Source of the DNA: a phage
Length of the DNA: 40,787 bases
Sequence record: OZ370879.1
Reading direction: 5' to 3' (one strand)
Shown here piece by piece: positions 137 to 18,963 of the stretch (positions are counted from its first letter, which is position 1; the number at the start of each line of letters is the position of its first letter). Position numbers and translations under genes: made by a program. The notes under the pieces are model-generated. The model was not told the origin of the DNA. It searched no databases and saw nothing but the letters and a program-made list of their open reading frames with translations.

Positions 137-300
137 TAGTCACTCAGATTTTTATGGTATATTTTAAAGGACCCTATAGGAACTCCATAGGCCCTCTCTA
201 AGACCCTCTTTAGGTGACACTGATAGGATGGCCTATCTTTAGGTATAGACCTTAGGATAGACCATTAGAGGCTCTTTATGGGTATACCTTAGGACTTGAC
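137..300. repeat. Array of short ctttaggt-type repeats next to the terminal repeat
   Basis: Repeated ctttagg/cttagg/ctatagg-like heptamers visible directly; T7 is known to carry short repeat arrays inside the terminal redundancy. Confidence 0.6.
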
Positions 301-375
301 TCTATAGGGATGAAGTGGTGTGATGCAATCATACCGCTGAATCCCTCGGTGAGCCATCAGTCGGTCAGGAAGACC

Positions 376-525
376 CTAATCGCTACAAGTGAGTATAGAG
401 CAAACGACAGACTCCAGTGAACTGAGGTCTCCAGTAAGAGATGCGTACCCAAGGGCAGCACAAAGTACCACAAGAAATCGGTAGGTGACTCTATGCCGCA
501 GTAGGTTCAACAATAAGCGGAACAT
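376..525 (-). CDS. 19.5: Gene 19.5 small protein (49 aa)
   Basis: ATG at 525 preceded by GGAGA, TAG stop at 376..378; position matches T7 gene 19.5 right of gene 19. Confidence 0.75.
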   Translation of the reverse strand: MFRLLLNLLRHRVTYRFLVVLCAALGYASLTGDLSSLESVVCSILTCSD

Positions 526-679
526 GAGTCTCCTCCCTTTATGTTGGTCCTTAAGTTAAGGTGATACTAATACAATATAATCACCATTCTTAGAGGTCAC
601 TCTAGGTACACCATTATGCATACTTTATGCACTCTATAAGTATTCATTCAGTATCTATATAGTAACCTTTCGTCCCTCC

Positions 680-702
680 TCTCCCTATAGTGAGTCGTAT
701 TA
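680..702 (-). promoter_or_regulatory. T7 RNA polymerase promoter phiOR
   Basis: Plus strand reads tctccctatagtgagtcgtatta, the exact reverse complement of the T7 consensus TAATACGACTCACTATAGGGAGA. Confidence 0.85.
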
Positions 703-783
703 ATTTATCGTGTCTTTTCAGTAACTTAAAGAACTGACCATCCGTGGTCTATAGTGCATCCCTATGCAGTCCTAATGCATAAA

Positions 784-2544
784 TCACCACTCAATGAAAG
801 ACGTACCGTAACCCTCATCGTCCTCAGAGTACACATCAACTCCTCCCACAGACATCTCAATGATATGCGTAGCAGCAACCGTAGGACGCATCATGTGTTC
901 CTCAAGGAAGTCAGCAAGTACTTCACCCTCGACCTTAACGGAATCCAACTGCATGGACTCACGGAGATACTCAATGCCTAACGCAAGGGCATCCAATCGG
1001 TCATCATGAGCCAGAGCGCCTTTCTCACGAGTGATACGGGTCATCTGGTAGAACAACGAGTACTTAACGTCATGCTTACCGTCTACGTCACGAGCGGACT
1101 GGTAGTCGGCCCTAATGACCTCATCACGAATTACAAGGCGGTGAGTCTGCATGACTGGCTCAAGGGTATCGCAAATACGCATCTCTTTCATACCACGGGC
1201 ACGAATCTCTTCCATCGCACAGTTGTGGTGTTTAAGAAGGATAGGACTGAATACCTTACCGAACATACCGTCACCGAAGTTACTCTCGTAGACAACCGTC
1301 TGGACTCCCCATTGCTTTGCCTTCTTAGCGAGTAACTCAAGGGTCTTATCGGAGTAGCCATCACGGAAACCTCCAGCTTCCATAAGGTAGATGTAACCGT
1401 TCAGTGTGTACAGCACAGCGTAACCTGTTTCGTCCTTACCGCGACCACTAGGGTCAATGACCAGAATCTTCTGTTGGTACTGACCTGAGTTGTTGGAACA
1501 ATCGTGGTACGTATGCAGGTCATCACCCTTAAGGCCAACGTTAGGAAGGTCCTCAATGATGTTCTGACGGTTCGGAAGCCACTGGTAATGCATTGGGGCC
1601 TTCTCTAAGTCTAAGGCCGCTACGATAGCGTCACGAAGCCTCAGCGGGTACTTCTCGGCATCACTAAGGTTAGGGTTAAGCATGAACTGTAGCGTAAAGC
1701 CAGCCTTACCGTATTCCAACTCACGCTCGCGCAGGTCATCACGGTCAAAGCGCACTGGGTCTGTTGGAGTCCCAGCAAGTGCCTCAGGGTTCTCATCGTA
1801 CTCAGCGCGTAACATAGGAGCAAGACGCTGTGAGTAATAGAGGTTCTCTTCACGTGTCCTTGGGTACAGAGCAGGCCAGATAATGGTTGTGTACCCACGG
1901 TTATCCTCAAGTTCCTTATAGAGAGTCATCTCTGTCTGAGGTGTACCAAGGTAGATAACGCGAGAGGAAGGCAGCGGTTTAAGTAACGCAGCGAACTCCT
2001 GAACCAGAGTCCATAGCTTCTCACGGGCACCCATAGTTGCGCTGTTAGACGGAATCTCAACGTCATCCGCAATGATAATGTCAGCACGGCTACCAGTTAA
2101 CTGACCAGTGATACCTACTGATTTCACACTAGGAGAGTGGTCAGGATTGGCTGGGCCTACATCAAAGCTGATTACCGAGTCACGCTGTCCGGGTCTTGGC
2201 TTTAACTCAGATAGGAATGGCAGCAGGTCAATGATGTTCTTAATAAAGATGGAGTTAGCGTCTGCACGCTCCTTAGAGGCTGATACGATAAGTATCTTCA
2301 ACTGAGGGTCTCTCCATAAGGACCACACAACGAACGCACATGTGATGAACGACTTACCGATACCACGGAAAGCCTGTAAGATGAACTTCTTGTTGTCTCC
2401 ATTCGCCAGCACCTTAGCCATGTCAATCTGACACTTAGTGGGCACCGGTAGGTTTAGCGCCTTCCATAAGACGAATAGGAACGCCACGAAGTCTCCTTTC
2501 AGTTGCGCCACTACGAGCGCATTACGATTGGATTGAGTAGACAC
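784..2544 (-). CDS. 19: Terminase large subunit / DNA maturase B (gp19, 586 aa)
   Basis: 586-aa [22 protein letters not shown]...; GTG start 4 nt after AAGGAGG; length and sequence match T7 gp19. Confidence 0.95.
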
Positions 2545-2565
2545 ATTGCCTCCTTACTTGATTTC

Positions 2566-2997
2566 CTACTTACGTTGCAGTTCACGAATAGTATCCTGTA
2601 ACGCACGAATCCATGCGTCACCCTTCTGGGTCACTGCGAGAATACGTTTAGCATCTCGGTCGTCAAGTTCGGCTCGACCATCAGGCTCGAATCCACACTG
2701 ACCATCGGAGGTTCCGGTAGTTTTGACTCTGACGCGCAACCGCTTATTGTCGCTACGCAAATCAGAAATAATCCTATCAGTGCTCCCTTCCAGCGCGGCA
2801 AGGTCTTCTTGATACTTAGCAGATACCGCATCGATTGCTCTTTGAGTGCTCTTCGCAGCCTCAACTCTCTTAACGTACTCATTGTGTACCTCCTGTTTCC
2901 ATTTAGCGTCCATTGAGTCTGACCCTAGATGCCATCCTAACCCGAATAGCATCCCAGCGAGAACCCAAGGGATTAGCTTACGTAAAAATTCTAGCAT
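2566..2997 (-). CDS. 18.5: gp18.5, Rz-like i-spanin (143 aa)
   Basis: 143-aa ORF with N-terminal hydrophobic segment, directly downstream of holin and gene 18; matches T7 gp18.5. Confidence 0.9.
   Translation of the reverse strand: MLEFLRKLIPWVLAGMLFGLGWHLGSDSMDAKWKQEVHNEYVKRVEAAKSTQRAIDAVSAKYQEDLAALEGSTDRIISDLRSDNKRLRVRVKTTGTSDGQCGFEPDGRAELDDRDAKRILAVTQKGDAWIRALQDTIRELQRK
2631..2882 (-). CDS. 18.7: gp18.7, Rz1-like o-spanin, fully embedded in gene 18.5 in another frame (83 aa)
   Basis: 83-aa ORF nested inside 18.5, contains lipobox-like ...ATISGCAS...; matches the T7 18.7 arrangement. Confidence 0.8.
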   Translation of the reverse strand: MSTLRELRLRRALKEQSMRYLLSIKKTLPRWKGALIGLFLICVATISGCASESKLPEPPMVSVDSSLMVEPNLTTEMLNVFSQ

Positions 2998-3044
2998 AAT
3001 GCCTCCCGTTAACTTTCAGATTTCACGTAGGAGCATCTCGTATA

Positions 3045-3095
3045 GACAATGACATCCATAAAGACCACTATCTGTAGTGGCCTTGAGTATATCAC
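3045..3095 (-). promoter_or_regulatory. Probable RNase III processing hairpin R18.5
   Basis: ataaagaccac...gtggccttgag inverted repeat of the same family as other T7 RNase III sites; position upstream of gene 18.5. Confidence 0.5.
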
Positions 3096-3361
3096 TGTAA
3101 TGTGTAAATATCATCATCCGTAAGACCGTTATCACCGACTTTCTCTTTGTACTCTTCAAGAGCACCAGCAAGGCCACCTAAGATGTGAACATCCGGCTGC
3201 AACTTACCAATCTGGAACTTGTGGCGGTCTAACAGTTTGTTAATAGCATTATAGAGTTGCGGAGAGCGACGCTCATGGTCCGAAAGGTCCGCAAGCATAC
3301 GCTGAGCCATCGCAGTGTCCAACATCTCTAAGAATGTAATAAGGCTCTTATCCTTTTCCAT
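3092..3361 (-). CDS. 18: Terminase small subunit / DNA maturase A (gp18, 89 aa)
   Basis: True start MEKDKSLITFLEML... at 3361; the ORF-track start 3 codons upstream is not used; 89 aa as in T7 gp18. Confidence 0.9.
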   Translation of the reverse strand: MEKDKSLITFLEMLDTAMAQRMLADLSDHERRSPQLYNAINKLLDRHKFQIGKLQPDVHILGGLAGALEEYKEKVGDNGLTDDDIYTLQ

Positions 3362-3366
3362 ACATA

Positions 3367-3570
3367 TCACTCCTTATTGGCTTTCTTCCAGTCAATCATC
3401 TTATCGACTACCTTGGCACCAATCTGAACCACTGTGTAGGCGATAGCAGCAACGTAGAACCATTCGTTAAGGCTTAACCCAAAGAACAGTCGAGCACTAA
3501 CATCTGCTACACCCGTCCCAACAATTGGAGCAGCCTTAATCAATTCGTTGTTAAAGTCTAATGATAGCAC
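3367..3570 (-). CDS. 17.5: Holin (gp17.5, 67 aa)
   Basis: 67-aa ORF with a hydrophobic core and charged C-terminus; matches T7 gp17.5. Confidence 0.9.
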   Translation of the reverse strand: MLSLDFNNELIKAAPIVGTGVADVSARLFFGLSLNEWFYVAAIAYTVVQIGAKVVDKMIDWKKANKE

Positions 3571-3628
3571 CTTGTACCTCCTTGAGAGTCCATCCGTGGA
3601 CTACACGTCTTTCCTTGTGATTTACCAA

Positions 3629-5290
3629 TTACTCGTTCTCCACCATGATTGCATTAGGTACAGAACGTCTGTCTGCAATATTCTTGAATCCGAGACCGTT
3701 GGAGTGTATTTGGAATCGTAACCATCCACCATCAGAGGCTATGAAGTAGATTCCATCGGGGCCAGTACGGAAGAAGTTCCAAGAGTTGTTGGCACACTTA
3801 ATCCAGATATTGCGGAAGCGGAGATCCTGTGAAACAGTCACACTTACCCCACCGCCAGCACTACCAGACCACACCTGAGTCCACGCCTTGGACTTCGCAA
3901 CGAAGCTGTCACGTAGGTAAGCATCCAGCCATTTACCTCCCCACTTAGTACCTTGAATATTACCATCAGTGGCCACAACGGCCTGACCTACGTGGAAGTG
4001 TTTGTTAACTACTGCATAGTCCTGCTTGAGTGTTAAGGTCGTACCATGTACATAGGAGTGGAAGGTACAGTCATTGTTGTTATCTGACCCTCTACCAATG
4101 TACCAGTTATTCCTGTTACCATCTTTAGATAGAATATAGTGCGCCTTGTCGGATGCGGACTCTAATTGAAGAACATGCCCATTCTGCAATTTTAGCTGAC
4201 CGGTCATGGCTCCACCTTGGGTGATGATCTGTCCGTTTACTACTAACTGGATGTTACCGCCTATCGCTGTTGTCCACTCTCTACGTTGAACATACATCAG
4301 CCATCCGTTCTCATCTCCCCACTCCATGACAGAGTAACGATTAGTGACACCACCAAAGAACTGTTGATACTGGCCACAGTCAAAACCGTTTGTGGTCATG
4401 TAAAGGCGCCCGTTAGCGTGAATATTTCCTTTCCAGTACACATTGGTTCCATCTACCTTATCAATTGCACCAGCCAATCCATTGTAATTTTCCAGCTTGT
4501 CTGCCTCACGTTCCGCACGGTCTGCTTGCTGTTCTGCCAAATGAGCAGAGTTAGCGGATGCTGTGGCAGAGTTCTCAGCGTTTACCTCAGATTGATGCGC
4601 AGCGGAAGCAGAGTTCCCAGCAGATGTAGCGTATTGACCAGCCGTATTCTTGAACCGCTTGGCTTCGTCTCGGAAACCCTTGGTCTCATCGCGCCACTGC
4701 TTTGTGTTCGTAGCGTTGGTACTGGACTCGTTCTTAAAGCCCTCCGCTTGGTTTCTGAAAGTCTCAGCCTCATTACGGAACTGTAAGGCTTCATTACGTG
4801 CTTGCCATGAGTTCTGGTTCATGGTCTTTAGTTGACCAAACGGAACAGCATCGCGGTCATCCACGGCGTTCGCTAGGTTCACAATTCGACGACCACGAGC
4901 ATCCAAGTGACCATCGTTATTGACACCGATAGTATCCGTAGTGAGGTCACGGGCCTCTTCCGCTACGTGCATCGTTTGAATCTGAGCGACGTTAAGGTCA
5001 TACGCGCGGAGGATTGAACCATCCGTAAAGTCAACCAATCGGTCGGTAGTGGAGGTTACTCGACGTAACTCGATGGTCGTGTAGCCATCGGCTGGACCCC
5101 AAGCCTTTGTCAGAGAGATAGTAGTACGTGTAGCAAAGCGATAGTCTGTATTAATCGTAAGGACCTTTCGGTCTACACCAATAAGAGTTACCACTACGAA
5201 CTTACGGGCTAGATACTCAAACGGGATATTAAAATCACGATTGGAGCCATCTAACTGGTAAGTCAAAACGGTTTTAATTACGTTAGCCAT
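3629..5290 (-). CDS. 17: Tail fiber protein (gp17, 553 aa)
   Basis: 553-aa ORF MANVIKTVLTYQLDGSNRDF...; matches T7 gp17. Confidence 0.95.
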   Translation of the reverse strand: MANVIKTVLTYQLDGSNRDFNIPFEYLARKFVVVTLIGVDRKVLTINTDYRFATRTTISLTKAWGPADGYTTIELRRVTSTTDRLVDFTDGSILRAYDLNVAQIQTMHVAEEARDLTTDTIGVNNDGHLDARGRRIVNLANAVDDRDAVPFGQLKTMNQNSWQARNEALQFRNEAETFRNQAEGFKNESSTNATNTKQWRDETKGFRDEAKRFKNTAGQYATSAGNSASAAHQSEVNAENSATASANSAHLAEQQADRAEREADKLENYNGLAGAIDKVDGTNVYWKGNIHANGRLYMTTNGFDCGQYQQFFGGVTNRYSVMEWGDENGWLMYVQRREWTTAIGGNIQLVVNGQIITQGGAMTGQLKLQNGHVLQLESASDKAHYILSKDGNRNNWYIGRGSDNNNDCTFHSYVHGTTLTLKQDYAVVNKHFHVGQAVVATDGNIQGTKWGGKWLDAYLRDSFVAKSKAWTQVWSGSAGGGVSVTVSQDLRFRNIWIKCANNSWNFFRTGPDGIYFIASDGGWLRFQIHSNGLGFKNIADRRSVPNAIMVENE

Positions 5291-5342
5291 TTGACCTCCT
5301 TAAAGTAAATCTAAGAGACTACAGGGAGAAGATTATTTCGCC

Positions 5343-5365
5343 TCTCCCTATAGTGAGTCGTATTA
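5343..5365 (-). promoter_or_regulatory. T7 class III promoter phi17
   Basis: Exact reverse-complement consensus tctccctatagtgagtcgtatta just upstream of gene 17. Confidence 0.85.
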
Positions 5366-8300
5366 TTTCCTACGCTCCCTCAAGTTAACACCGTTCGCCT
5401 CATAAATCTTCAACACAAGCTGTTGAGTCAATGGGTCGTTCGGTACTAACTCTTTTGTGGAGTTCATAAGACCAGTCATGAAGTCCTGCTCGGTTGCTTT
5501 ATTAGGTGAGTTGACCACGCCAGCAGCATTCATTAAGGTAGCCCCTACGTTAGCCACAAAGCCAGCCGAAGGCATCTGTTCCAGAAGGTTTGAACCCATA
5601 GCGCCCATTACCTCTCTAGAGGTGTACGGTTTGTTTGGGTCACGTTCCTTCACGGTGTCCTTAGGTAGAATCGTAGAGCGAGCCATCTTGGAGGACTCGA
5701 ACCCTAAAACACCACCAACTAGGTCAACCATAGCCAAAGGAGCACCCAATTGAGAACTACGAGATAACGCAGCGTGGGCAATCATGGTTGGGTCCAGTGC
5801 ACGCTCCAAGTACTCCTTACGTTTCTCCTTAGGCAGAGCGTATGCTTTGACGTGTGCAGCCATAGCATAGAAACCACCAGCGAGACCCATAGAGGTGATG
5901 ATGCTCAGCGCAGCGTCAATCGCTCGGTTGTTCTTGTATCCATCATAGAAGGTTCGCAGGAACTTAGAGTTAAGGGACTTGATAGTGAAAGACTTAAACT
6001 GCATAACCATCTTACCTAGTGCTCCGAACGCATGGGAATCCTGTAAGGACACCTTATGTGGACGCAGCATTGCCTCATCAGCTACCTTGTCAGCCAGTCT
6101 CCATAAGTCCATAGCCCGTGGGTCCATAGAGAACGCTTGCTTGTCCTTAACGGTAAACTTCCCGTCCTCACCGCGTACCATATGTTCCTTGATGAGAGAC
6201 TTGATGCCAGCCATCTGCTCAGGAGTTACGGAGGCACCACGAAGGAAGCCTTCTTTCTCCCAGCGGGTAGTCTTACCTGTTAGGGTGGCACTAATAACAT
6301 CCCCAAGCATACCTTGACGCGCAGCATCCAGAAGGTAGTTAGTGGTTCCGTTCAGTAGCTTAGTCCACGGAGAGCGAGCAGCCAGTTCCTGTGTTGAATA
6401 CTTCAAGGTCCCTACGATGTTCGCCACGGCAGGTCCGGTATCAGTTGCTTCCCTTAGGCGCTGCACAATGTCAGCACGTTTAGGCCGAATCAACTGGTCC
6501 ACCTCCTTCCCGAACAGAGACGCATGGAGTTCCTTGAGTTCCTTAGCTGAAACTGGTTTAGACTTGTAGAGTGTATCACGCAGAATTGGGATACTATGCC
6601 CTAGAGCACGAACGTTACCAGTGACAATCATCCCAGCAATCTCCGTAATGTTCTGAGCACCCATGTAGGCGTTCTTAGCGAAGAACCCTAGGTCATTGAT
6701 GGCACGCAGTGAGGTTTCCCACACAGTGTCCTGATTGCGTCTAGCACGACCAGTAAGAATCTTAACGGTATCCATTAAAGCATGTACCTCGCCAGTCTTC
6801 TTACCGTCTCCCTCAGCTTTCGCTTTGAGAGCCAAAATCTCATCCTTAAGTTCCTTAGTGGTTTTACCAGTAGACCCCATGATGGCGATGTCACCATTGA
6901 CACGGCGGTCATACGCTGGCATGATGCGGAACATATCGAAGTCCCTTAGGTCATTCACTGAGAATTGCTGTCCGTCTGGCATAGTGATGGATAGGTCCGA
7001 ATCAAACAAGTTACGTGCCTCAAGGAATGAGTTATTCTCGATACCTACTAAGCCCTCAATGTTCTCTTCTATTATGGAACTGTTGGTGAACTGGTCTGAG
7101 TGGGAGATACCATAAGCCTTATCCATAGCGTACTTCTCTACCATCTCTGGTGTTACTTCCTTCACCCCGTGTAATTCCTTAAGCATCTCATCGACTCTGG
7201 CCTTGACCTCAGGTCTGGAGACGTAGCTGTTCATCCATGAGCGGGCAATCCCTTCCTGCAAACCTTCGGCACCGTAGCGTTGAATCATCAGCGCCTTGGC
7301 ATGACGGTCATATACGTGAGGAACGTAAGTACCTTTGTGGCGACTCTCAGGGAAGATACTCACAGCCTTTGTGTTACCGAATATTGCTGGGTTTTCCATA
7401 AGTTCACGCTTGGTGTCAAAGTGACGCTTAATGATGTCCATAACGATTCTCTCAGACGGAGTGAGTGCCTTCTGTAGTTCTGGACGCTCAATAGCTAGTG
7501 CCGCTCTACGGTAGATAGTGTATCGAGTTTCTTCACGGGACATCTTAGCGCCGCCAGTAGAGAACTCAGGGTCTTTCATAGCGTCAGACATTGCTTTGTA
7601 CAAGTCATTATAAGTACGCTGGTCAGTACCATGAAGTTTCTCATGGATGTCAGAAGCTGTTGCACCGAACTTACCTGAGGCACCAGACTGCATACCAGTA
7701 GGAGAGCGAACGAGGTCGATAGCCACTCTACGGATGTCAGCATCGTCAGACCCCAAGGTCTTCAAGCCAATCTCGGTGAACCCAGCCAGTTTGATTCCTC
7801 GCGCAGCCTTCTCAGGGTCAACCTCGGAGAACTCTTTTAGAGTCTTAGGGTTGATTGGGTTGCTTGCACTTAGAACGGAGCCATCATGTAACACCACGGC
7901 ACCTCTCTCTGTTGGTAAGTCCTCATAAGGGACACCATTATGTTCACCTTCAAACTTCATGTTCTCAGTGTTCATCCGAGAGAGGTCCGCAGAGTTGGCG
8001 TTTCGTGCTGTCTCACGGGCTTCCAATCGCATCATAGGACCGATGAACTCATTGTCGAACTCAGCTTCTGGTTTACTGCGTTTCAGTCCAGCAGCTACAG
8101 CGTCACTGATTGCAGACATGCCTGCGCCAAACACAAAGCCACCTAAGGCAGCACCCGCATAGTCTGCGTCACCACCAGCTACGGAGGTACGGAGACCTTC
8201 GGATGCAACGTTCAGAGCAGCACTTTCGGCACCAACTACAAGAGCCTTATTGATTAACTTAAAGCCCTTACCAGTGACACCGACCATAGGAACATAGCTA

Positions 8301-9319
8301 AGCGGGTCCACACCAGCACCAATAATACCAGCACTCAGTTTGGCACCTAGGCCAGCCTCGGCAGCGCGGGAGTCATTCTCAAAGTTCTCGTTAGCCAATT
8401 TAATGAGGTCATCGAGGTTCTCAGGGGAACCACCAGTTACAACGTTGATGTACGCAGGGTTCTTAACCTCTGTTCGAATCTTCTCTAACTCCTCTGGAGT
8501 CCAGATGTGAGAGTTCCAGCGAGTCGGCGTAATGGTGTCTTTAAACACATCAAAACCATTATCGAGACGACCAGCACGGAAAGCCATCCCAGCGACTGAG
8601 TTGGAGAGTTCAGCTTCGGCAGCATTTTTGAATCCGAAGAAGGTTGAACGACTGTTGTACTCGTCAAGTGTTTCTCCGTGGGTCTCCCAAAAGTCCTTGG
8701 CGAATGGTTTCGCCGTAGCCTCCTGTTCGATACCCTTAACGTCAAAACTTGTGGACTCAGGAAGTTCCTGTGTTACTTTCTGCTTGTGACCAATTCCAGC
8801 CAATCCTACCTCAGCCGGAATGCCTTTACCCTTTGGGGTTATGCCACCAAAAGTTTCCAACTGTCCAGCCATAGGTGACTTAGCAACATCCAGAAGGTTA
8901 CGCATGTAGTTACGTCCCTCCTCAGAGATTGATGCGAAGTCTCCCTTAGAGTACGCCTCAAGTTGTGGATTACCCAAGCGTCCCTCGCCTTGGTTGTACG
9001 CAAGGGCAGCTTTGAGTTCATCGCCATCAAACTTCCCTACCAGACCTGCAAGTTGCTTAGCGGCAGCATTAATAGCTAACTCAGGGTTCAGTCGGTCGTC
9101 GTCTGGACCATCGGTAACTCGCAGACCGAGGGCCTTAGCGGTTGCCTTGGTAAATTGCATCATGCCTAATGGTCCAGTCTTAGATTTTGCTGTAGGCACA
9201 AATCGTGATTCTGTCCAAGCGACTTTACGTAAAAGGTCATAAGAGACCCCGTTGGCATCAGCAGCCTTTTGGAACAGACCATCATAATCACTTGGTACGT
9301 TCTTATCGTACTTATCCAT
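5363..9319 (-). CDS. 16: Internal virion protein D (gp16, 1318 aa) with N-terminal lytic transglycosylase domain
   Basis: 1318-aa ORF; N-terminus LLRKVAWTESRF...GPLGMMQF is an SLT-type motif; matches T7 gp16. Confidence 0.95.
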   Translation of the reverse strand: MDKYDKNVPSDYDGLFQKAADANGVSYDLLRKVAWTESRFVPTAKSKTGPLGMMQFTKATAKALGLRVTDGPDDDRLNPELAINAAAKQLAGLVGKFDGDELKAALAYNQGEGRLGNPQLEAYSKGDFASISEEGRNYMRNLLDVAKSPMAGQLETFGGITPKGKGIPAEVGLAGIGHKQKVTQELPESTSFDVKGIEQEATAKPFAKDFWETHGETLDEYNSRSTFFGFKNAAEAELSNSVAGMAFRAGRLDNGFDVFKDTITPTRWNSHIWTPEELEKIRTEVKNPAYINVVTGGSPENLDDLIKLANENFENDSRAAEAGLGAKLSAGIIGAGVDPLSYVPMVGVTGKGFKLINKALVVGAESAALNVASEGLRTSVAGGDADYAGAALGGFVFGAGMSAISDAVAAGLKRSKPEAEFDNEFIGPMMRLEARETARNANSADLSRMNTENMKFEGEHNGVPYEDLPTERGAVVLHDGSVLSASNPINPKTLKEFSEVDPEKAARGIKLAGFTEIGLKTLGSDDADIRRVAIDLVRSPTGMQSGASGKFGATASDIHEKLHGTDQRTYNDLYKAMSDAMKDPEFSTGGAKMSREETRYTIYRRAALAIERPELQKALTPSERIVMDIIKRHFDTKRELMENPAIFGNTKAVSIFPESRHKGTYVPHVYDRHAKALMIQRYGAEGLQEGIARSWMNSYVSRPEVKARVDEMLKELHGVKEVTPEMVEKYAMDKAYGISHSDQFTNSSIIEENIEGLVGIENNSFLEARNLFDSDLSITMPDGQQFSVNDLRDFDMFRIMPAYDRRVNGDIAIMGSTGKTTKELKDEILALKAKAEGDGKKTGEVHALMDTVKILTGRARRNQDTVWETSLRAINDLGFFAKNAYMGAQNITEIAGMIVTGNVRALGHSIPILRDTLYKSKPVSAKELKELHASLFGKEVDQLIRPKRADIVQRLREATDTGPAVANIVGTLKYSTQELAARSPWTKLLNGTTNYLLDAARQGMLGDVISATLTGKTTRWEKEGFLRGASVTPEQMAGIKSLIKEHMVRGEDGKFTVKDKQAFSMDPRAMDLWRLADKVADEAMLRPHKVSLQDSHAFGALGKMVMQFKSFTIKSLNSKFLRTFYDGYKNNRAIDAALSIITSMGLAGGFYAMAAHVKAYALPKEKRKEYLERALDPTMIAHAALSRSSQLGAPLAMVDLVGGVLGFESSKMARSTILPKDTVKERDPNKPYTSREVMGAMGSNLLEQMPSAGFVANVGATLMNAAGVVNSPNKATEQDFMTGLMNSTKELVPNDPLTQQLVLKIYEANGVNLRERRK

Positions 9320-9345
9320 TTAGGGCCTCCTTATGTAGCCTTTAG

Positions 9346-11589
9346 TTACTCCTTACGTCCGTAGATGAACTTAGGAGTCTGTTTACGTTTCTCTCGGACT
9401 CGTTTAGCAGCAGCTTCACGGGCCTTCGTAGCGGCAACTATAGGTGCTCGCTTGTTCACATCAGCCAGAGCCTTCTCACGAGCTTTCTCTTCGAGTTTCT
9501 TCTGGTTCTCACTCCAGACCTTCGAGAGTAACTCTTTGTCGTATCGGACTCTGACTTGACCTGTGGTGTCCATAAGGTAAATGGAGTCACCTTGAGAATA
9601 CATGGTCAGTTGCTTATTGGTTATCCAAGGGTTGCTCGCAATGATTCCCTTACGTGCTTCCTCCAGAATATCCCGACCTTGCTCCCATGATTTCGGGTCA
9701 GAGTTAACCTGCATCATATTCTTAGGAATCACACCAACGGTATCACCGTCAACATCATCACCAGTGAACGTGTAGGTAGATTCCTTAAGGAACTTGGTCA
9801 TCTGCTCCATAGCCATGCTTTCGTTCCCCGAGCGATACTTAACGGAGTCATAAATCTTACGTGCAGATTCGCGCAGTGACGCTGGCATACGGGCAATCTC
9901 AGGAGCCTTAGATGCATTCAGTGCAGACTCGAATGCTTTATCATCCTCAAAGCGTTGCTCTTTGGACCGCTTAACAGTCAGTCGGTCGGCATCAAGAATA
10001 ACCTGAGGGTCAATACCCTGCTTGTCCATCATGTCCATCGTCAGGAATAGCTCAGCTTGGTCTGGGTATAGCGCAGCAATCAACTGAGGGTCAGCATTGC
10101 GGATTCTGCGCAGAGCATCCATAGCTGGGGTTCGTTCTGGTAACTTACCGTTAATCACAGCGGCAGACCACTCTTGACCAGCGTCAGTGACCATGGTTCC
10201 GATGGCTGTACGGAATGCTCCGTCCTTAGAGTCCGCTTGAAGGTACTTCAACTTCATAGCATCCTTGGCACCGTCTGGAATGTCCATACTGTCAATCTCA
10301 GCGAGCTTCTTATTGGCGTAGTTAACCATATCGCTATGCTTGAACTCACCAGTGTTCTCGTTGACTGGCATATCCTTAAAATCCGTTGAGACCCACTCAC
10401 CGTTGATTCGCTTCTGGAATTGCTTGTCGATTACGTCAAGTTTGTTCATTGACTTCATGGAATCGTCCAGAGCCTTGGCCTGAGCTTTCGTCCATGCGTT
10501 CATCTGATTCTGAACTTGTTCCTGTGCGGAGATTAGCCACTCACGTTGTGGTGTCATCTGCTCATCAGGTTGGACCTTATCTAGTTCAGCCTTGATACCT
10601 TGAAGCATCTCCCAAGCTGTCCTTGGGTCCTCTTGGTTCAGCGCAGAGTTAATCTTCAAGCGATACTGCTCGTTCAGCTTCGCGTCAGTCTCAAACTGAG
10701 AACGTTGTGCTGTGACCATGAGAGCGTTCCACTGTTCCTCACCAATCAACTCTCGGTAAGTCGTAGTGGCTCCGTTAAGTGTTACCTTCTTGTCACCGAC
10801 TCGCATCAGGAAGTCAGCACCACCAGCACGGCTAGAAGCGTCACTGAACGCTTGGCTTATAAGCTGTGTGGCTTGAGCATCAGATGGGATTGCGCCAGTA
10901 ACCAGACCGTTGTCGATATACTTCTCAAAGAAGTCAGCAGAGTCTGGACGACGCAGCATATCAGGGTCTTGAAGGACACCGTTGAGTTCCACTCGGCTGT
11001 TCATGATAGCGCCCTTCTGAGCTTGCTGGCTCAAGAAGTTATCATGCGCACCATACAGCGAGATGTTACGCTCGGTAATGTCCCCGTTGAAACCACGCTG
11101 ATAATCAACGTCCTCAGGGTCGATGCCGAACTGCTCAGCGTATACCTTAGCGCCCTCTTGAAGGCGACTATGGCGATACTCTTCCATCTCTTCGCGAGTA
11201 CGGAAGACACCCTCTTTTATCTTCTGCATAACGTCATCGTCCACAAGATACGCAGCGTTACGACCAGTCTTGACTCGGAGTGCTTCCATAGCGTATGGGT
11301 CATCCTGATACAGAAGGGTCCCGTTGTTGAGAGCTTCTCGACGTTGCTCAGGGGTCAGCTTACGGATAATCTCGTTAGAGCGTTCATCAGCTAGGTCTCG
11401 TGCTCGTTGTTCCTTAGCGGTATACATATCGGCACCAGCCTTAGCGAACCGACCAATGGTGTCCAATAGGCTTGACCTTGGCTGTTCGGCCTGAGTGGTT
11501 GCTGCACGATAGCCCATACCTCCAGCACCACCACGTAACCGAGAGAGTCCCGGTTGTGCCGCTTGAAGGGCAGATTCAATTTTACTCAT
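9346..11589 (-). CDS. 15: Internal virion protein C (gp15, 747 aa)
   Basis: 747-aa ORF, position and length as T7 gp15. Confidence 0.95.
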   Translation of the reverse strand: MSKIESALQAAQPGLSRLRGGAGGMGYRAATTQAEQPRSSLLDTIGRFAKAGADMYTAKEQRARDLADERSNEIIRKLTPEQRREALNNGTLLYQDDPYAMEALRVKTGRNAAYLVDDDVMQKIKEGVFRTREEMEEYRHSRLQEGAKVYAEQFGIDPEDVDYQRGFNGDITERNISLYGAHDNFLSQQAQKGAIMNSRVELNGVLQDPDMLRRPDSADFFEKYIDNGLVTGAIPSDAQATQLISQAFSDASSRAGGADFLMRVGDKKVTLNGATTTYRELIGEEQWNALMVTAQRSQFETDAKLNEQYRLKINSALNQEDPRTAWEMLQGIKAELDKVQPDEQMTPQREWLISAQEQVQNQMNAWTKAQAKALDDSMKSMNKLDVIDKQFQKRINGEWVSTDFKDMPVNENTGEFKHSDMVNYANKKLAEIDSMDIPDGAKDAMKLKYLQADSKDGAFRTAIGTMVTDAGQEWSAAVINGKLPERTPAMDALRRIRNADPQLIAALYPDQAELFLTMDMMDKQGIDPQVILDADRLTVKRSKEQRFEDDKAFESALNASKAPEIARMPASLRESARKIYDSVKYRSGNESMAMEQMTKFLKESTYTFTGDDVDGDTVGVIPKNMMQVNSDPKSWEQGRDILEEARKGIIASNPWITNKQLTMYSQGDSIYLMDTTGQVRVRYDKELLSKVWSENQKKLEEKAREKALADVNKRAPIVAATKAREAAAKRVREKRKQTPKFIYGRKE

Positions 11590-11595
11590 AGCTCA

Positions 11596-12186
11596 TTACC
11601 TCCCCGTCTTGGTTCCTTTAGCGGCAACAATAGGTGCCTTAGTTGTGGACTTAGAGTCGAACGCACCGGATGCGTAAGCACTCGCAGCGGAAGACCCCAT
11701 GATAGCCAGTGGGTCCAGAACCATCTGTAGCTTACTCTTCTGTTTCTGTTCGCTCTTATAGATTTCGTCAATCTGACTTGCAGCACTTTGAGTACCACCA
11801 AGTTGCTGTGCGAAGATTGCTTGGTAGTCACGGCGATAGTTCTCAGTTACCATATTGGCTTCCCGAATGAACTGTCCTTCTGTGACTCGCTTAATGCGGT
11901 CCATTGAGGAACCTTCAAGCATACTCTCTCCGATAGCCGCTCGGATAGACCCAATAGCTTGGACCTTCTGCATGTTCTGTGAGGTCAACTCGGCGGACGC
12001 TTCCTCAAGTTTACTTCGAGCTTGCAACGATAGGTCAGCATTCTGGATGTTCGTCTGCCTCATGATTTCCATAGCTTGACGACGACCAGCAGCGGTCTGA
12101 GCGGCAATCATTTTGGCCTGAGCGTTCTGACCACTGATAGCCTGAGCGCCAGATATAGCGATAGGTATTGCGGCTGCCCAACACAT
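11596..12186 (-). CDS. 14: Internal virion protein B (gp14, 196 aa)
   Basis: Start at ATG for MCWAAAIPIAISGAQ... (12186); 196 aa as in T7 gp14; the ORF-track upstream extension is not used. Confidence 0.9.
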   Translation of the reverse strand: MCWAAAIPIAISGAQAISGQNAQAKMIAAQTAAGRRQAMEIMRQTNIQNADLSLQARSKLEEASAELTSQNMQKVQAIGSIRAAIGESMLEGSSMDRIKRVTEGQFIREANMVTENYRRDYQAIFAQQLGGTQSAASQIDEIYKSEQKQKSKLQMVLDPLAIMGSSAASAYASGAFDSKSTTKAPIVAAKGTKTGR

Positions 12187-12190
12187 ATGG

Positions 12191-12607
12191 TTATCCTCCT
12201 TTCGTGATTGTAAATAACTGAAATTGACCATCTCGTGTGTACTCTTCATGGAATACCGCACCGATAGTCTTGAGGAAACGAATGTGGGACGTATTGCCTA
12301 CCCATACGTAATTCCAAAGAGTATCATACTTCTCAAGCATCTTATCGCGATACTCCATGATTAACTTACGGAACTTTCGCTTAGCCTTTCCACTAAGTCG
12401 CCACACTTGGTCGCTCGTAACGAACCAGCACTGGTCCCCGCAGTTACCACCGATAGCTAGAGGGAACCCATAGAGGCTCAACGTGACACACTCGGAAGCA
12501 TCAGGGAAACTCGGCTCAATACCAGCAGCCTTAGCTTCAAGAATGTCATGGTGAGCCGGAGTGAATACCTCAAAGTCTGTACTTTTAGTAGGTCTTATAG
12601 TCATCAT
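12191..12607 (-). CDS. 13: Internal virion protein A (gp13, 138 aa)
   Basis: 138-aa ORF downstream of the phi13 promoter. Confidence 0.9.
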   Translation of the reverse strand: MMTIRPTKSTDFEVFTPAHHDILEAKAAGIEPSFPDASECVTLSLYGFPLAIGGNCGDQCWFVTSDQVWRLSGKAKRKFRKLIMEYRDKMLEKYDTLWNYVWVGNTSHIRFLKTIGAVFHEEYTRDGQFQLFTITKGG

Positions 12608-12634
12608 AAGAAAACCCTCCCGTAGTCGTATTGT

Positions 12635-12657
12635 TCTCCCTATAGTGAGTCGTATTA
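12635..12657 (-). promoter_or_regulatory. T7 class III promoter phi13
   Basis: Exact reverse-complement consensus tctccctatagtgagtcgtatta. Confidence 0.85.
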
Positions 12658-12687
12658 ATTTCGAGCCACCACAGGGAGAATATTTAA

Positions 12688-15072
12688 TTAAATACCGGAA
12701 CTTCTCCGTAAGTAGTTACCTCCCCAGCCACACCCAATGATGTTCAGAGGGGTAGTCTCATCTGACAAGATGTATACAGTGTTGAACTTGGCGTTACCAA
12801 CCACAGGGAATCGATATTGTCCGGTCCCTAAGTTCAGTCTCCCAGCCCTCAGAGTGTTAGAGCCTAATCGGGCACCAGCCATTGTGTACTTCCAGTTAGA
12901 CGATTGGTTCTCAACATAAATGTCAAACGTACCAGAGTTCTCGTAGTTAACCCACGCTCGGCGTAACTGTAAGCGCCCAATGTCTTCCGTGGAGGTAGAC
13001 CCGTCGTCGGCAGTCTGCTTGATGAGGAACTTAGAGAACTCATATACGAAGTTAATGTTGAACCCAATGTACACCATGCGTCCCTCCAAGTTACCGCTGA
13101 GTCTCAGCCAAGGGTCGCTATTCCACCCAGCCGTAGGTTGCTCAAACACGGTTATCTTACCATCAGGCTCCAATACAGTGATTTTGCCCCTCCCGAAGTT
13201 TGCACCATAAATTGTTGGAATATGAATAGAGGTAGTGAATGTGTCATCGTTGTATGTTCCACTAGGAATCGTGTATCGAATCTTCATGTCCATAAAGGCA
13301 CGATAGGGTTCTCCCTGTAAGTCAATGGCGTTCTTAGTGAAAGAGATTCTAGCTAGGAACGTATTGAACTCATTGCGAAGAATCACATACATATCTGAGC
13401 TGATACTCTGACAAGCTAGAACCTGTACGTTTTCCCCAAAGTCCCAATGAGACCACGACTGTTGCCTTAACTCTTCGTTCAGGTACAGGAATTTGTACAT
13501 GAAGATTTTACTAGGGTCCCCGTGAGATAGTACCGAACAGAAGTTTTCCGTACCACTTCCGCAAATACTGAACACACCATTAGGGATGTAGTTAGGAACG
13601 TGTGATGTAATGTCCTCAGCATTCTTAACGGAACTGACATCCTGCACAGCGTAGTACCTGTGGATGGACGTGAAGCTGGACCTCGGACTAGCAAAGTAGA
13701 CATTACGCCCAATCCCAAAAGGTCTCGCTCGGTCCTGTACGTCAAACTGGGTCGTTAGGTTCAACTCAACCGACTTAGATGTGAGAGTACCCGAGGCAGT
13801 CAGGACGAATTGTGCTTCATCGGACCAGATGAGTAACTCTTCTGAGAACGGAACGGCGTACTTAAGGATTGCTATTCGGTTGGTACTCACAGCTACGTCT
13901 ATAGGGTCGTCATCACTAAGGTTCGCAATGGACGCAGGGTAGAAGTTGAAGTATTTGGCTGTACGACTCAATATGATGTTCTCCCCACTAAGGAATCCTA
14001 AGCGGTTACGGAAGAAGAACACATCGTTAATACTTGAACCAACAAAAGAAGGCCAAGGGTTGGTGTCAACGTCACCACAAGACTTAGGAGACCACTCAAG
14101 CCACTTGAAGTCGAAATTACCGTCAGCGGCTCGCACAAGAGCGTGTGGCATGGTTTCCCATAGAACTTGGTCCTCAGTGTTCCAACCTAAAGTCTCAGTC
14201 CAAACTTTCCGCTCAGCGTCATACCGAACGTAATACTGGTCGGCAGACTTAGAGGCGTCCCCTACGATTTTCACCATGTAGCCGTTAGGAGCATTAGGTG
14301 GCAGCTTAGAGAACGACTGAGCGTAGTGGGTCACAGGGTTAATCAACTGGTCTGCGTAGCCATCTTTAGTCGTGAAGGAGTCAATCTGTTGACCACTAGG
14401 TGCGGTCACATGGATGAACCCTTGCCCTACATTTACAGTCCAATCAGACAAGTTAGTGCGCATCTGCTTGGCTAACTCTTCAGCTAACCATTGGGCATCC
14501 GTATTGTTTACGTGTTCAGGTTGACTACCATCTGGTATCTTATACTTCGCAACGTCTTTACCGTTAATGTGTACAATTAGTTCCCTACCATACTGACCAC
14601 CACGAACGTTAATCAATCCGTCTTGATTAGGGTTGTAATTCGGTAAGTTGACAGACTTTGTGTTCTTCTGTGCAACAACGTTACGGTTAACGATGAACGT
14701 ATAGTCTGCTACAGTAACCATTCGCAGGTCGTTACGTGGATTAGCGGTCTTGATGTAGTTGGAACCGTTAGGATACCTAACTTGCTTCTCGTTACCAGAA
14801 AGGTCGAACACTCGGATTCCGCTACCAGTGAACACAGCGTAATACTGTTCGTGCTCATCTCGGTTAATCAGGTGGATGTACGGAGCTTGACCTAACGCAC
14901 CGTTGTCTCCAAGTGTATTTAAGAAAACAAGAGGTGGACGCTTTTGGAGGCCCTCGGTCTCCGAAGACCAACCGTTAACTTGGCGTGACCCTTGGTCTGG
15001 ATAACGAAGGATGTCAGGCTGTTGGCTGATACCACCCTTCAAGTTCTTGATTGATTGGCTAATGAGTGCCAT
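12688..15072 (-). CDS. 12: Tail tubular protein B (gp12, 794 aa)
   Basis: 794-aa ORF MALISQSIKNLKGGISQQPD...; matches T7 gp12. Confidence 0.95.
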   Translation of the reverse strand: MALISQSIKNLKGGISQQPDILRYPDQGSRQVNGWSSETEGLQKRPPLVFLNTLGDNGALGQAPYIHLINRDEHEQYYAVFTGSGIRVFDLSGNEKQVRYPNGSNYIKTANPRNDLRMVTVADYTFIVNRNVVAQKNTKSVNLPNYNPNQDGLINVRGGQYGRELIVHINGKDVAKYKIPDGSQPEHVNNTDAQWLAEELAKQMRTNLSDWTVNVGQGFIHVTAPSGQQIDSFTTKDGYADQLINPVTHYAQSFSKLPPNAPNGYMVKIVGDASKSADQYYVRYDAERKVWTETLGWNTEDQVLWETMPHALVRAADGNFDFKWLEWSPKSCGDVDTNPWPSFVGSSINDVFFFRNRLGFLSGENIILSRTAKYFNFYPASIANLSDDDPIDVAVSTNRIAILKYAVPFSEELLIWSDEAQFVLTASGTLTSKSVELNLTTQFDVQDRARPFGIGRNVYFASPRSSFTSIHRYYAVQDVSSVKNAEDITSHVPNYIPNGVFSICGSGTENFCSVLSHGDPSKIFMYKFLYLNEELRQQSWSHWDFGENVQVLACQSISSDMYVILRNEFNTFLARISFTKNAIDLQGEPYRAFMDMKIRYTIPSGTYNDDTFTTSIHIPTIYGANFGRGKITVLEPDGKITVFEQPTAGWNSDPWLRLSGNLEGRMVYIGFNINFVYEFSKFLIKQTADDGSTSTEDIGRLQLRRAWVNYENSGTFDIYVENQSSNWKYTMAGARLGSNTLRAGRLNLGTGQYRFPVVGNAKFNTVYILSDETTPLNIIGCGWGGNYLRRSSGI

Positions 15073-15095
15073 TAGAGCCTCCTTATTTATTAATG

Positions 15096-15686
15096 TTAGC
15101 GAGTCAGTAGACCAGAAGTGAACGCATCTCCATCCAGCATATTGTACCCACCGTAGTCCATCTCATACTCCATGCAGAGACGTCTAGCCTCATCTTCCTC
15201 TTCTTGGAGTACACCCTCTACTTCCGGTGCCCCAAAGAATCGGTTGTTGAACTGACGGGAAGCCTTGGTGACAATCCAGTAACGGAAGCACTCAGGCATC
15301 TCATCGTAGTCGCGGAGACGAATAATGTTCACAGTAATACCAGAGTCAAAGCGGTCTGATTGACTCGTTCGGTCATACACATAGCCACCTCGGTTAACGT
15401 AGATGGATTGACCGGAAGTAGACATTAGGGATAAATAGTCGTCACTGTATACAATCAGGTTGGAGTAAACATCAGGTAGTAGCGTTATGCCTTCCTCAAT
15501 GTTGAACGTCCATCCACGAGATTGAATCTGTCGGTTAATCTTGTTGAGAATACGCCGAGCGTTCGCTGCATCTGCGTTAGCGTCACCTTCCAGCGTTGAT
15601 ACCGGAGGTTCACCGATAGACGCCAGAATGTCGTTCACAGCTGATAACTCAGCGGCAGTCTCAACGTTCATATCGTATGAGCGCAT
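15096..15686 (-). CDS. 11: Tail tubular protein A (gp11, 196 aa)
   Basis: 196-aa [24 protein letters not shown]...; RBS aaaggagg upstream; matches T7 gp11. Confidence 0.95.
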
Positions 15687-15703
15687 ATAGTTCCTCCTTT
15701 CAG

Positions 15704-15748
15704 CAAAAAACCCCTCAAGACCCGTTTAGAGGCCCCAAGGGGTTATGC
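15704..15748 (-). terminator. T7 late terminator Tphi
   Basis: Sense strand reads tagcataaccccttggggcctctaaacgggtcttgaggggttttttg: a GC-rich hairpin followed by a U-run, identical to the terminator carried by pET vectors. Confidence 0.9.
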
Positions 15749-15828
15749 TAGTTATTGCTCAGCGGTGGCAGCAGCCAACTCAGCTTCCTTTCGGGCTTTG
15801 TTAGCAGCCGGATCTCCTAAGGCTCGAG

Positions 15829-16591
<763 letters not shown>

Positions 16592-16616
16592 CGGGATCGA
16601 GATCTCGATCCTCTAC

Positions 16617-16745
16617 GCCGGACGCATCGTGGCCGGCATCACCGGCGCCACAGGTGCGGTTGCTGGCGCCTATATCGCCGACATCACCGATGGGGAAGAT
16701 CGGGCTCGCCACTTCGGGCTCATGAGCGCTTGTTTCGGCGTGGGT
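16617..16745 (+). pseudogene. tetA: Fragment of pBR322 tetracycline-resistance gene tetA (about 43 internal codons), plasmid backbone remnant
   Basis: Plus strand translates to [46 protein letters not shown]; preceded by agatctcgatcc, the BglII site and destroyed BamHI junction typical of pET vectors. Confidence 0.85.
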
Positions 16746-16806
16746 ACAGAGGCCTAAGAGTGCTTTGTACTGTATGGCTCCGGTTTGGAATGTTTGCCAC
16801 GTGTTT
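16746..16806. other. 61-bp linker of unassigned origin between the gene 10A stop and the vector fragment
   Basis: Matches neither the recalled T7 sequence after gene 10A nor pBR322; contains StuI aggcct and PmlI cacgtg. Confidence 0.5.
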
Positions 16807-17844
16807 TTACTCCACTTTGAAAACCACTGCACCAGCAGCTTCTGGGCGAAGACCACCGTGGCCCATTGCGTACTTAGCGATAATCTGGTCCGCTTGGAAG
16901 TTAGCACGGCGAGCGCGCTCCAGAGCCAAGTCACGCAGCTTAACAGTACCTACCGCAGAGCGGTGCATGAACAGGCCGATAACGTTGTCCTTAGCAACCT
17001 TGACATTACCCTCACCTTTATTGGCAGGGAAGACGTGCTTCTGACCAGTAGTGCCCTCACGAGCGGTACCAGCACCACCAGCGGTGAGGTGCGGAACTTC
17101 TACAACCTCAAAGCCCATAACGTTGCGGATAGAACCCTTCTCAGGGTCAATCAGAGCAGCGTAGTTTGCTGCGTTCGGCATCAGTGCTGCCAGAATCGCA
17201 GAGTAGCTATCTGGGTCACAGTAGAACACACGGTCAGCAGCCGGAACATAGTTCTTGGTCAGAGCCGCACGAGCCTTAGTCAGAGCCGCAATAATCTCCT
17301 TACCCAGCGCAACTTGGTCGGTAAGTGCGGCCTTGTTCTGAGTGGTCTCAATTACGGTAGCAGTACCTAAGCCCTCGATGTTCTCATTATATTTGCTTTC
17401 CACGTTACACAGACCGGCAATCTCAGCCAGAACCGCACCATCCGCAGCCATCGCCAGAGATTCACCCAACTGAGAGGTATACTCAGAGCGAACGTCGTAG
17501 TGGTTCATCGCGTCCTCAATATCATAAATCAGAACGTCAGCCGTCAGGAGACCGTCAATGGTGATTACCTTCTCGGTGTGTTTGATGTCCTTACGTTTAT
17601 CGTCGAGGTTCTCGCCCGGAGCCAGATACGCTGCCTGAGTGCGACCCAGAACAGGGAACTGAGCGGATTTACCGCTGGAGATGGAACGTACCATGTGGCG
17701 AGAAGTGGTCACGGAGGTACGAGCGAACGCAGTCAGGACTTCACCGCCAAATACCTTCAAGAACAACGCCAGTTTATCTCCAGCAGCAACTACACCTTTA
17801 CCTTGGTTAGTACCCATTTGCTGTCCACCAGTCATGCTAGCCAT
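16807..17844 (-). CDS. 10A: Major capsid protein (gp10A, 345 aa)
   Basis: ORF MASMTGGQQMGTNQGKGVVAAGDKLALFLKVF...AVVFKVE, start inside NdeI catatg; matches T7 gp10A. Confidence 0.95.
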   Translation of the reverse strand: MASMTGGQQMGTNQGKGVVAAGDKLALFLKVFGGEVLTAFARTSVTTSRHMVRSISSGKSAQFPVLGRTQAAYLAPGENLDDKRKDIKHTEKVITIDGLLTADVLIYDIEDAMNHYDVRSEYTSQLGESLAMAADGAVLAEIAGLCNVESKYNENIEGLGTATVIETTQNKAALTDQVALGKEIIAALTKARAALTKNYVPAADRVFYCDPDSYSAILAALMPNAANYAALIDPEKGSIRNVMGFEVVEVPHLTAGGAGTAREGTTGQKHVFPANKGEGNVKVAKDNVIGLFMHRSAVGTVKLRDLALERARRANFQADQIIAKYAMGHGGLRPEAAGAVVFKVE

Positions 17845-17847
17845 ATG

Positions 17848-17930
17848 TATATCTCCTTCTTAAAGTTAAACAAAATTATTTCTAGAGGGAAACCGTTGTG
17901 GTCTCCCTATAGTGAGTCGTATTAATTTCG
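17848..17930 (-). promoter_or_regulatory. Native T7 class III promoter phi10 with gene 10 leader and RBS (promoter core 17902..17924)
   Basis: Exact consensus promoter followed by the s10 leader; 83 bp identical to 16509..16591. Confidence 0.9.
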
Positions 17931-17937
17931 AAGTCTA

Positions 17938-18861
17938 TCAGAAGTTCGAATCGATTACTTTCTGTTCGACTTGACGACGATAGTTGGCATCTGTGCGATA
18001 CCGAGGGTCACTCATAGCTTTAATCATCTCGCTACGGTCCGCAAAGCCTTCACGCTTGGTAGCCTGAGGTTTAGCCGGAATAGCACGATTAGTCACACTA
18101 CGAGTTGGCTTACGACCGAACGCCTTAGCGCGAGACTCACCAGCCAAGTTGATGATAGCCTTAACGGTCGCTAAGTCACGACTGGTCAACGCATTATCCA
18201 GCGACTGTGCAGCCTCAGGGTTGTGCGTCTCAAGGTGGTTATACAGTGCATCAAAACGTTCACGACCACCAGCGTACTCAATGACACTGTTTACGTACTG
18301 CTCCACCAGAGCTTCTTGACCACGGATATACGAGTCAATGAAAGCCTTCGTGTAGCCAATTTCAGCCAGCTTAGCGTAGGACTCGGCGGACAACTCTTCG
18401 TTCTCCTCGTACTCACGCTGGATAGCCTCAATGGTCTCGACACTCATGCCACGCTCAGCAGCAATGTTAATCATCTCTTGGAAGCCCTCTTCGTGCTCAC
18501 CAAGTTGCTCAGAGGCAGCTACCAGTTCTTCTGGAGTCTCGCCCAGTGGGGTAAACTCTTCGGAACCTTCGGTGCCCTCAACGCCTTCTTCTCCAGTGTC
18601 CACATCGGTCGGCTCAGAGCCATCACCGATACGAACCTGAATGCGGCCTTCGTCATCCTCTTGACCGAACGGGTCAGAGTTGTCATACAGGTCACGTTCT
18701 GTTTCCACTTCGTCTGACGCTAACTCGATTGCATCATCGCCATCACGGGCAGCAACATCAAGAGCCAGCATGTTCTGCTCATGTTCCTCAACGGAACCAC
18801 CAGACATCACAGCGGAGTTCACGCCAAAAGATGCATATACGTCTGCATTAGATTCAGCCAT
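17938..18861 (-). CDS. 9: Capsid assembly / scaffolding protein (gp9, 307 aa)
   Basis: Acidic 307-aa ORF between phi9 and phi10; matches T7 gp9. Confidence 0.95.
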   Translation of the reverse strand: MAESNADVYASFGVNSAVMSGGSVEEHEQNMLALDVAARDGDDAIELASDEVETERDLYDNSDPFGQEDDEGRIQVRIGDGSEPTDVDTGEEGVEGTEGSEEFTPLGETPEELVAASEQLGEHEEGFQEMINIAAERGMSVETIEAIQREYEENEELSAESYAKLAEIGYTKAFIDSYIRGQEALVEQYVNSVIEYAGGRERFDALYNHLETHNPEAAQSLDNALTSRDLATVKAIINLAGESRAKAFGRKPTRSVTNRAIPAKPQATKREGFADRSEMIKAMSDPRYRTDANYRRQVEQKVIDSNF

Positions 18862-18940
18862 TATTATTGTCTCCTTAAAGTTGAACTACAGGAAGACCGA
18901 GGACTCCAACCTCTTGTCATCGCTCATTTCAAAGATGAGG

Positions 18941-18963
18941 TCTCCCTATAGTGAGTCGTATTA
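18941..18963 (-). promoter_or_regulatory. T7 class III promoter phi9
   Basis: Exact reverse-complement consensus. Confidence 0.85.

Follow-up and report, generated by a model that had tools for sequence, protein, structure and literature searches.

How does a piece of a tetracycline resistance gene come to lie in the genome of a T7 phage, and can it still act there? The question is raised by positions 16592..16745 of phage record OZ370879.1, which a sequence-only reading had taken for a pBR322 tetA fragment carried along with a cassette from a pET-type plasmid. Comparison by blastn of the reverse-complemented window (the whole stretch of 40,787 nt analysed here) with NC_001604 identified it as T7 25..39913 in reverse complement with a single large replacement, in which a foreign block of 995 bp (15812..16806) supplants T7 24005..24101, the gene 10B-specific tail. 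The two flanking parts, T7 25..24004 and T7 24102..39913, are 99.96-99.99% identical to the window. We regard it as about 95% probable that the window is a laboratory-engineered T7 built by PHEIGES (Levrier et al., Nat Commun 2024, PMC10933291), in which PCR fragments are assembled in vitro and then expressed in a cell-free system, with a deGFP reporter that was PCR-amplified from T7p14-deGFP. This reading has its basis in directly observed sequence identities and boundaries, in the match to a published primer and in an architecture common to published genomes.

Architecture of the insert

The deposited genome is oriented as the reverse complement of the T7 reference, and all T7 genes of the window lie on the minus strand. 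Both window ends (1..136 and 40652..40787) are without 24 nt of T7, which leaves 136 nt of the 160-bp terminal repeat. In the direction of T7 transcription the insert and its surroundings comprise the following features.

17847..17930, minus strand: native phi10 promoter and leader, one copy of an 84-nt direct repeat
16807..17844, minus strand: gene 10A (major capsid protein), intact, with its stop codon at 16809..16807; the insert begins at the next base
16747..16806, minus strand: oho1, a designed orthogonal assembly overhang of 60 nt (AAACACGTGG...GGCCTCTG), equal to the upper-case 5′ part of primer oho1-mcherry-s
16728..16746, minus strand: annealing site of the forward primer, TACCCACGCCGAAACAAGC (supplementary oligo table, PMC10933291), which sets the outer end of the tet scar
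16607..16746, plus strand, antisense to T7 transcription: internal fragment of tet(C) (pBR322 tetA), 140 nt, recognised by nucleotide identity, translation and HMM
16592..16606, no strand assigned: pET-type BglII linker, cgggatcgagatctc, which joins the tet fragment to the T7 promoter fragment (AGATCT at 16600..16605)
16508..16591, minus strand: second phi10 promoter with gene 10 leader and RBS, a 100% match to T7 22881..22964
16503..16508, minus strand: NcoI site (restriction-site map), the entry point of deGFP
15829..16506, minus strand: deGFP ORF of 225 aa (MELFTGVVP...VTAAGI), with a Pfam GFP match and ~99% identity to GFP-bearing plasmids
15812..15828, minus strand: 3′ cloning scars XhoI, Bsu36I and AGATCC (restriction-site map), just before the Tphi segment
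15690..15811, minus strand: Tphi terminator segment, starting with GCTGCTAACAAAGCCC, T7 ~24102/24106 onward and continuous with native gene 11

The promoter proper of the second phi10 copy, TAATACGACTCACTATAGGGAGA, lies at 16585..16563, and a lac operator is absent. The reporter ORF is eGFP shortened at both ends; deGFP has been described as a slightly shorter eGFP from the laboratory that built the phages (PMC10933291). At the 3′ end AGATCC replaces the GGATCC of the vector and would represent a BglII/BamHI fusion. A terminator scan placed the Tphi hairpin at 15744..15709, and the segment shows a 1-nt gap relative to T7 (T7 24105, window 15808). The crossover from plasmid to phage sequence is located somewhere within 15690..15811, over which plasmid and phage sources are identical.

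The insert creates an exact direct repeat of 84 nt, since phi10 promoter and leader are now present at 16508..16591 as well as at 17847..17930. The two copies flank gene 10A, the overhang and the tet scar, and recombination between them would delete the essential capsid gene. The reporter alone is not flanked by a repeat, so that no easy route leads to the loss of deGFP only. With the insertion the gene 10B-specific tail is lost as well, and the minor capsid product made by −1 frameshifting would read FQSGV-KTRGKHSKPEPYSTKHS* (16754..16822, minus strand) and stop inside the synthetic overhang, with 22 residues after the slip versus 57 in the native protein.

Identity and coding content of the tet(C) fragment

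A megablast search of 16592..16745 against 72,556 plasmid records gave matches in 112 of them. In 110 of these 112 records query bases 16..154 match annotated tet(C) with an identity of 99% or more, and for 16607..16745 the identity to tet(C) is 100% in more than 100 plasmid records (E = 2e-66). With a wider query one further identical base (16746) was gained; the fragment therefore comprises 140 nt (16607..16746), all of which are identical to tet(C), the tetA gene of pBR322. Judged by these alignments the match is far beyond chance. The presence of a pBR322 tetA fragment in a phage genome, as proposed from the sequence alone, is thereby borne out, while the proposed interval 16592..16745 needs correction: it does contain the tet sequence, but its first 15 bases are the BglII linker, and identity to tet runs from 16607 to 16746.

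In NC_002056.1 the match spans coordinates 376..515. BamHI cuts pBR322 at position 375, with which this numbering agrees, so the fragment begins with the GATCC left over from that site. The sequence 'agatctcgatcc' was found at 16600..16611.

The search also returned five small plasmids (5.6-6.6 kb) in which all 154 bases of the query are matched at 100%, in agreement with the expectation of near-identity to a tet region flanking a T7 promoter. Four of the five additionally match the promoter and terminator regions of the window, and the fifth matches the upstream block only. Size and content (a kanamycin resistance gene, rop and a foreign insert) mark these plasmids as pET-type expression vectors. 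They are CP014772.1, NZ_CP080650.1, NZ_CP071514.1, CP046410.1 and NZ_CP130428.1, filed under unrelated bacteria (a lichen Mucilaginibacter, a deep-sea Ruficoccus, Staphylococcus haemolyticus, Aeromonas and Micromonospora), and most likely represent contamination of those genome projects with laboratory vectors.

The tet reading frame starts at 16608 on the plus strand and encodes the peptide that had been proposed, followed by TEA and a stop codon. A frame beginning at 16592 was considered as the tet frame and rejected, as its translation is not tet. The fragment starts mid-codon at the BamHI remnant and encodes 46 aa, corresponding to positions 98-143 of the 396-position Tet(C) model or ~12% of the protein. 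It reaches 90.3 bits with the Tet(C) HMM (E = 1e-25) versus a curated cutoff of 850, and 30.5 bits with Pfam MFS_1 versus a cutoff of 33.4; no transmembrane architecture remains. Compared with tet(C)/TetA(C) of pBR322 and pSC101, nucleotide identity is 100% over the 140 nt, but only 46 of ~396 codons are present, without promoter or start codon.

The sole in-frame start within the fragment is an internal GTG at 16629, which opens an ORF of 42 aa and is not preceded by a Shine-Dalgarno motif when the sequence is read by eye. A sigma-70-like promoter was found on neither strand in 15600..17100. The earlier statement that the piece lacks a start codon and promoter of its own thus holds with the refinement of this internal GTG. 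From a full-length functional tet(C) one would expect an ORF of ~396 aa, a family score above the cutoff and an own promoter and start; none of these is present, and what the fragment shares with such a gene is nucleotide identity. It is furthermore antisense to every T7 gene. It would be transcribed only as antisense, in RNA that reads through from phi9 and phi10 across gene 10A towards Tphi, which now sits behind deGFP. In line with the proposed lack of function, the fragment cannot confer tetracycline resistance.

It had also been suggested that naive screening would flag the piece as a resistance gene. Screens based on E-values would indeed do so, whereas a caller that applies the curated cutoff should not (90 vs 850 bits). 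A precedent is found in PLSDB, where RGI labels a 120-bp piece of tet(C) in a vector-like plasmid as a resistance gene.

Probable origin of the fragment in primer and template plasmid

The outer boundary of the tet sequence is explained by a published oligonucleotide. On the minus strand, window 16806..16728 is identical in 79 of 79 nt to primer oho1-mcherry-s, AAACACGTGGCAAACATTCCAAACCGGAGCCATACAGTACAAAGCACTCTTAGGCCTCTGtacccacgccgaaacaagc, the lower-case part of which anneals (supplementary oligo table, PMC10933291). This annealing 19-mer is listed a second time as sequencing primer 'pIVEX2.3d-seq1-s', and orthogonal overhangs were added to the primers for "leak-free" assembly (PMC10933291). 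A restriction-site origin of the outer tet boundary was rejected, since no site is present there and the boundary equals the primer end. Likewise, the 61 nt between gene 10A and tet do not derive from another phage or vector but are a synthetic primer overhang.

As templates the paper names T7p14-Mcherry for the mCherry amplicon and T7p14-deGFP for a backbone amplicon (PMC10933291). Primer gp10-s contains TAGAGGATCGAGATCTCGATCCCGCGAAAT (PMC10933291), which indicates that T7p14-deGFP carries the same tet/BglII junction. We infer that a primer of the oho1 design (overhang plus annealing 19-mer) was used for the deGFP version, too. The link to T7p14-deGFP and pIVEX2.3d, which we consider probable, is based on the name of the primer and on the primer sequences.

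The cassette has the expected layout of a pET/pIVEX-type construct built from the BamHI site of pBR322: BglII linker and phi10 promoter abut tet at the BamHI remnant, and s10 leader with RBS, NcoI start and Tphi follow. Vectors of the pET-3/pET-14 type and pIVEX2.3d are alike in that tet starts from the BamHI remnant, followed by BglII linker, phi10 without lac operator, s10 RBS, NcoI and Tphi. Unlike in these vectors, just 140 nt of tet are present in the window, cut at the primer site, and the cassette resides in a phage genome. The suggestion that tet was lifted together with a pET-type cassette is supported by the BglII/tet junction, which matches that of the small vector-like plasmids, and can be refined in that the template would have been T7p14-deGFP, a Noireaux-lab plasmid of pIVEX2.3d type, rather than a pET plasmid as such. 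The hallmarks of a PHEIGES reporter insertion are found as well, namely oho1 with the 19-mer and a position after the gene 10A stop codon that ends in native Tphi and gene 11.

Taken together, these data suggest the following course. The deGFP cassette would have been amplified from T7p14-deGFP, a vector of the pIVEX2.3d/pET type, with a forward primer consisting of the 60-nt oho1 overhang and, as 3′ annealing part, the standard sequencing primer of the laboratory. This primer presumably binds inside the residual pBR322 tet(C) of the vector, 161 nt upstream of the T7 promoter; the 161 nt are the distance in the phage between the 5′ end of the annealing part (16746) and the first base of the promoter (16585), from which the distance on the template is derived. 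A piece of 140 nt of tet(C), the 15-nt BglII linker and 6 nt of T7 sequence before the promoter would thereby have been copied along into the phage. Thus, the tet scar would be present because the primer with orthogonal overhang reused a sequencing-primer site inside the residual tet, and the tet piece would be a passive passenger in the untranslated stretch that separates the second phi10 promoter from gene 10A. An earlier primer, mcherry-tt-s, anneals at TAATACGACTCACTATAGGG itself (PMC10933291) and would import no backbone.

Of 50,697 phage records searched in a distant mode, no more than three contain the 61 nt between tet and gene 10A, namely PP384393, PP384395 and PP384397. In these records overhang and tet block precede a feature annotated as "T7 promoter added for mCherry cassette", and the block itself is unannotated. 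It is located after gene 10A, gene 17 or gene 1, and its occurrence at three different T7 loci indicates that it moves together with the cassette and is not tied to the locus. All three are PHEIGES mCherry phages made with orthogonal overhangs: T7_mCg10o (PP384393.1), T7_mCg17o and T7_mCg1o (PP384395, PP384397) share with the window oho1, the 140-nt tet(C) piece, the BglII linker, phi10 promoter and leader and the NcoI start. PP384393 further agrees with the window in the insertion point, immediately behind the 10A stop codon, and in the Tphi junction. Window 17000..16503 is identical to PP384393 in 497 of 498 nt. The one difference affects the XbaI site of the leader at window 16542, which is intact in the window (TCTAGA) and reads TCTAGC in PP384393; the two reporter plasmids accordingly differ at this base. 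Further differences concern the reporter (deGFP in the window, mCherry in PP384393 and its siblings), the 3′ polylinker, which is a short XhoI/Bsu36I/AGATCC sequence in the window but the His-tag polylinker of pIVEX2.3d in the mCherry phages, and the gp17 exchange S541R, which distinguishes the window from the mCherry phages. A phage record with the whole insert was not found in the phage collection (release August 2025), none of its records reaching 80% coverage of 14500..19000. Over this 4.5 kb the PP3843xx records are 100% identical and NC_001604 is 99.9% identical.

The differences from reference T7 point to a particular published phage. In gene 17 (window 3662..3668, minus strand; T7 36246 and 36252) S541R (AGT to AGA) is accompanied, two codons away, by a silent change of S543 (TCA to TCT) that has the look of a mark left by design or by a primer. 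The exchange S541R itself has been published as the mutation by which T7 is retargeted to RdLPS (PMC12808745). Phage T7-GFP-S* ('A synthetic cell phage cycle', Nat Commun 2025, PMC12808745) is described as a T7 in which egfp takes the place of mCherry, with the position downstream of gene 10 unchanged; this phage carries the RdLPS-specific tail-fibre mutation S541R, was nanopore-sequenced and was deposited as OZ370879 (PMC12808745). Its description matches the window with respect to both GFP at the mCherry position and gp17 S541R, and the features of the window as a whole fit T7-GFP-S*. Relative to NC_001604 the window also shows N227S in gene 9, E784G in gene 12, R561K and G909S in gene 16, a silent change in gene 0.7 and a 1-nt A insertion near T7 1896 (window positions 18182, 12722, 7638, 6595, 38347 and 38916). 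N227S in gene 9 appears to be common to the other T7 records of the laboratory, given their 100% identity over 14500..19000.

Could the tet sequence have been kept deliberately, as a designed spacer or insulator between the second T7 promoter and the overhang or gene 10A? In favour of this, the block does not vary among the three insertion loci or between the mCherry and GFP versions. Nevertheless, the cassette is defined in the paper by four parts only, promoter, RBS, reporter and terminator (PMC10933291), the primer anneals through what is simply the sequencing primer of the laboratory, and the block is left without annotation in GenBank. Moreover, the earlier primer design starts at the promoter without any spacer and was yet reported to give mCherry-positive phages (PMC10933291). 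We therefore consider deliberate retention improbable.

Still less credible is an artefact, in which vector reads were misjoined into the phage assembly and the scar is not physically part of the phage. The genomes of the follow-up paper are long-read nanopore assemblies (PMC12808745), 24 nt are missing from either end of the window, and small plasmid records assigned to very diverse bacteria in unrelated genome projects do include pET-like vectors. Against this, both junctions are exact and designed, with the overhang right after the 10A stop codon and Tphi continuous with gene 11; the same structure is present in three separately deposited genomes with insertions reported as confirmed by NGS (PMC10933291), and the published phages fluoresce and hence contain the cassette. 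We rate an artefact as very improbable. Capture of the fragment in nature, by recombination between a wild T7-like phage and a tet(C) plasmid, is the least probable origin and can practically be dismissed. It would draw on the wide distribution of tet(C) on natural enterobacterial plasmids, but the start of the fragment coincides exactly with the BamHI remnant of pBR322, where a BglII linker and a duplicated phi10 promoter are joined to it, and its other side is bounded by a synthetic 60-mer identical to a published oligonucleotide. A GFP gene follows whose G+C content (~60%) differs from that of the T7 backbone (~48%), and only engineered records share the block. The carry-over of vector sequence by a PHEIGES primer is thus the reading retained here.

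Possible consequences of the scar

It is possible, though in our view rather unlikely, that a scar derived from primer and vector in this way is not entirely inert and that it provides, in addition to a trigger for AMR and biosafety screens, an unplanned landing pad or route of gene capture through homology to pET/pIVEX plasmids. Homology to this plasmid family is perfect over ~240 nt on one side of the reporter (16503..16746) and comprises ~120 nt of Tphi on the other. With homology arms on both sides, the recombination system of T7 itself could therefore, on a plasmid-bearing host, swap deGFP for the insert of the plasmid, if this view is correct.

The tet scar is an ordinary cloning leftover of known kind in a published engineered phage and biologically nothing new. 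The choice of primer, i.e. the reuse of a sequencing primer for annealing, silently imports vector backbone into engineered genomes. In the sibling phages the block is unannotated and absent from the description of the cassette in the papers (PMC10933291), and AMR or biosafety screens, for instance of therapy candidates, may consequently report a harmless tet(C) piece of 46 codons. As the window represents an engineered T7 reporter phage of a published type, nothing in this region should be taken as natural biology.
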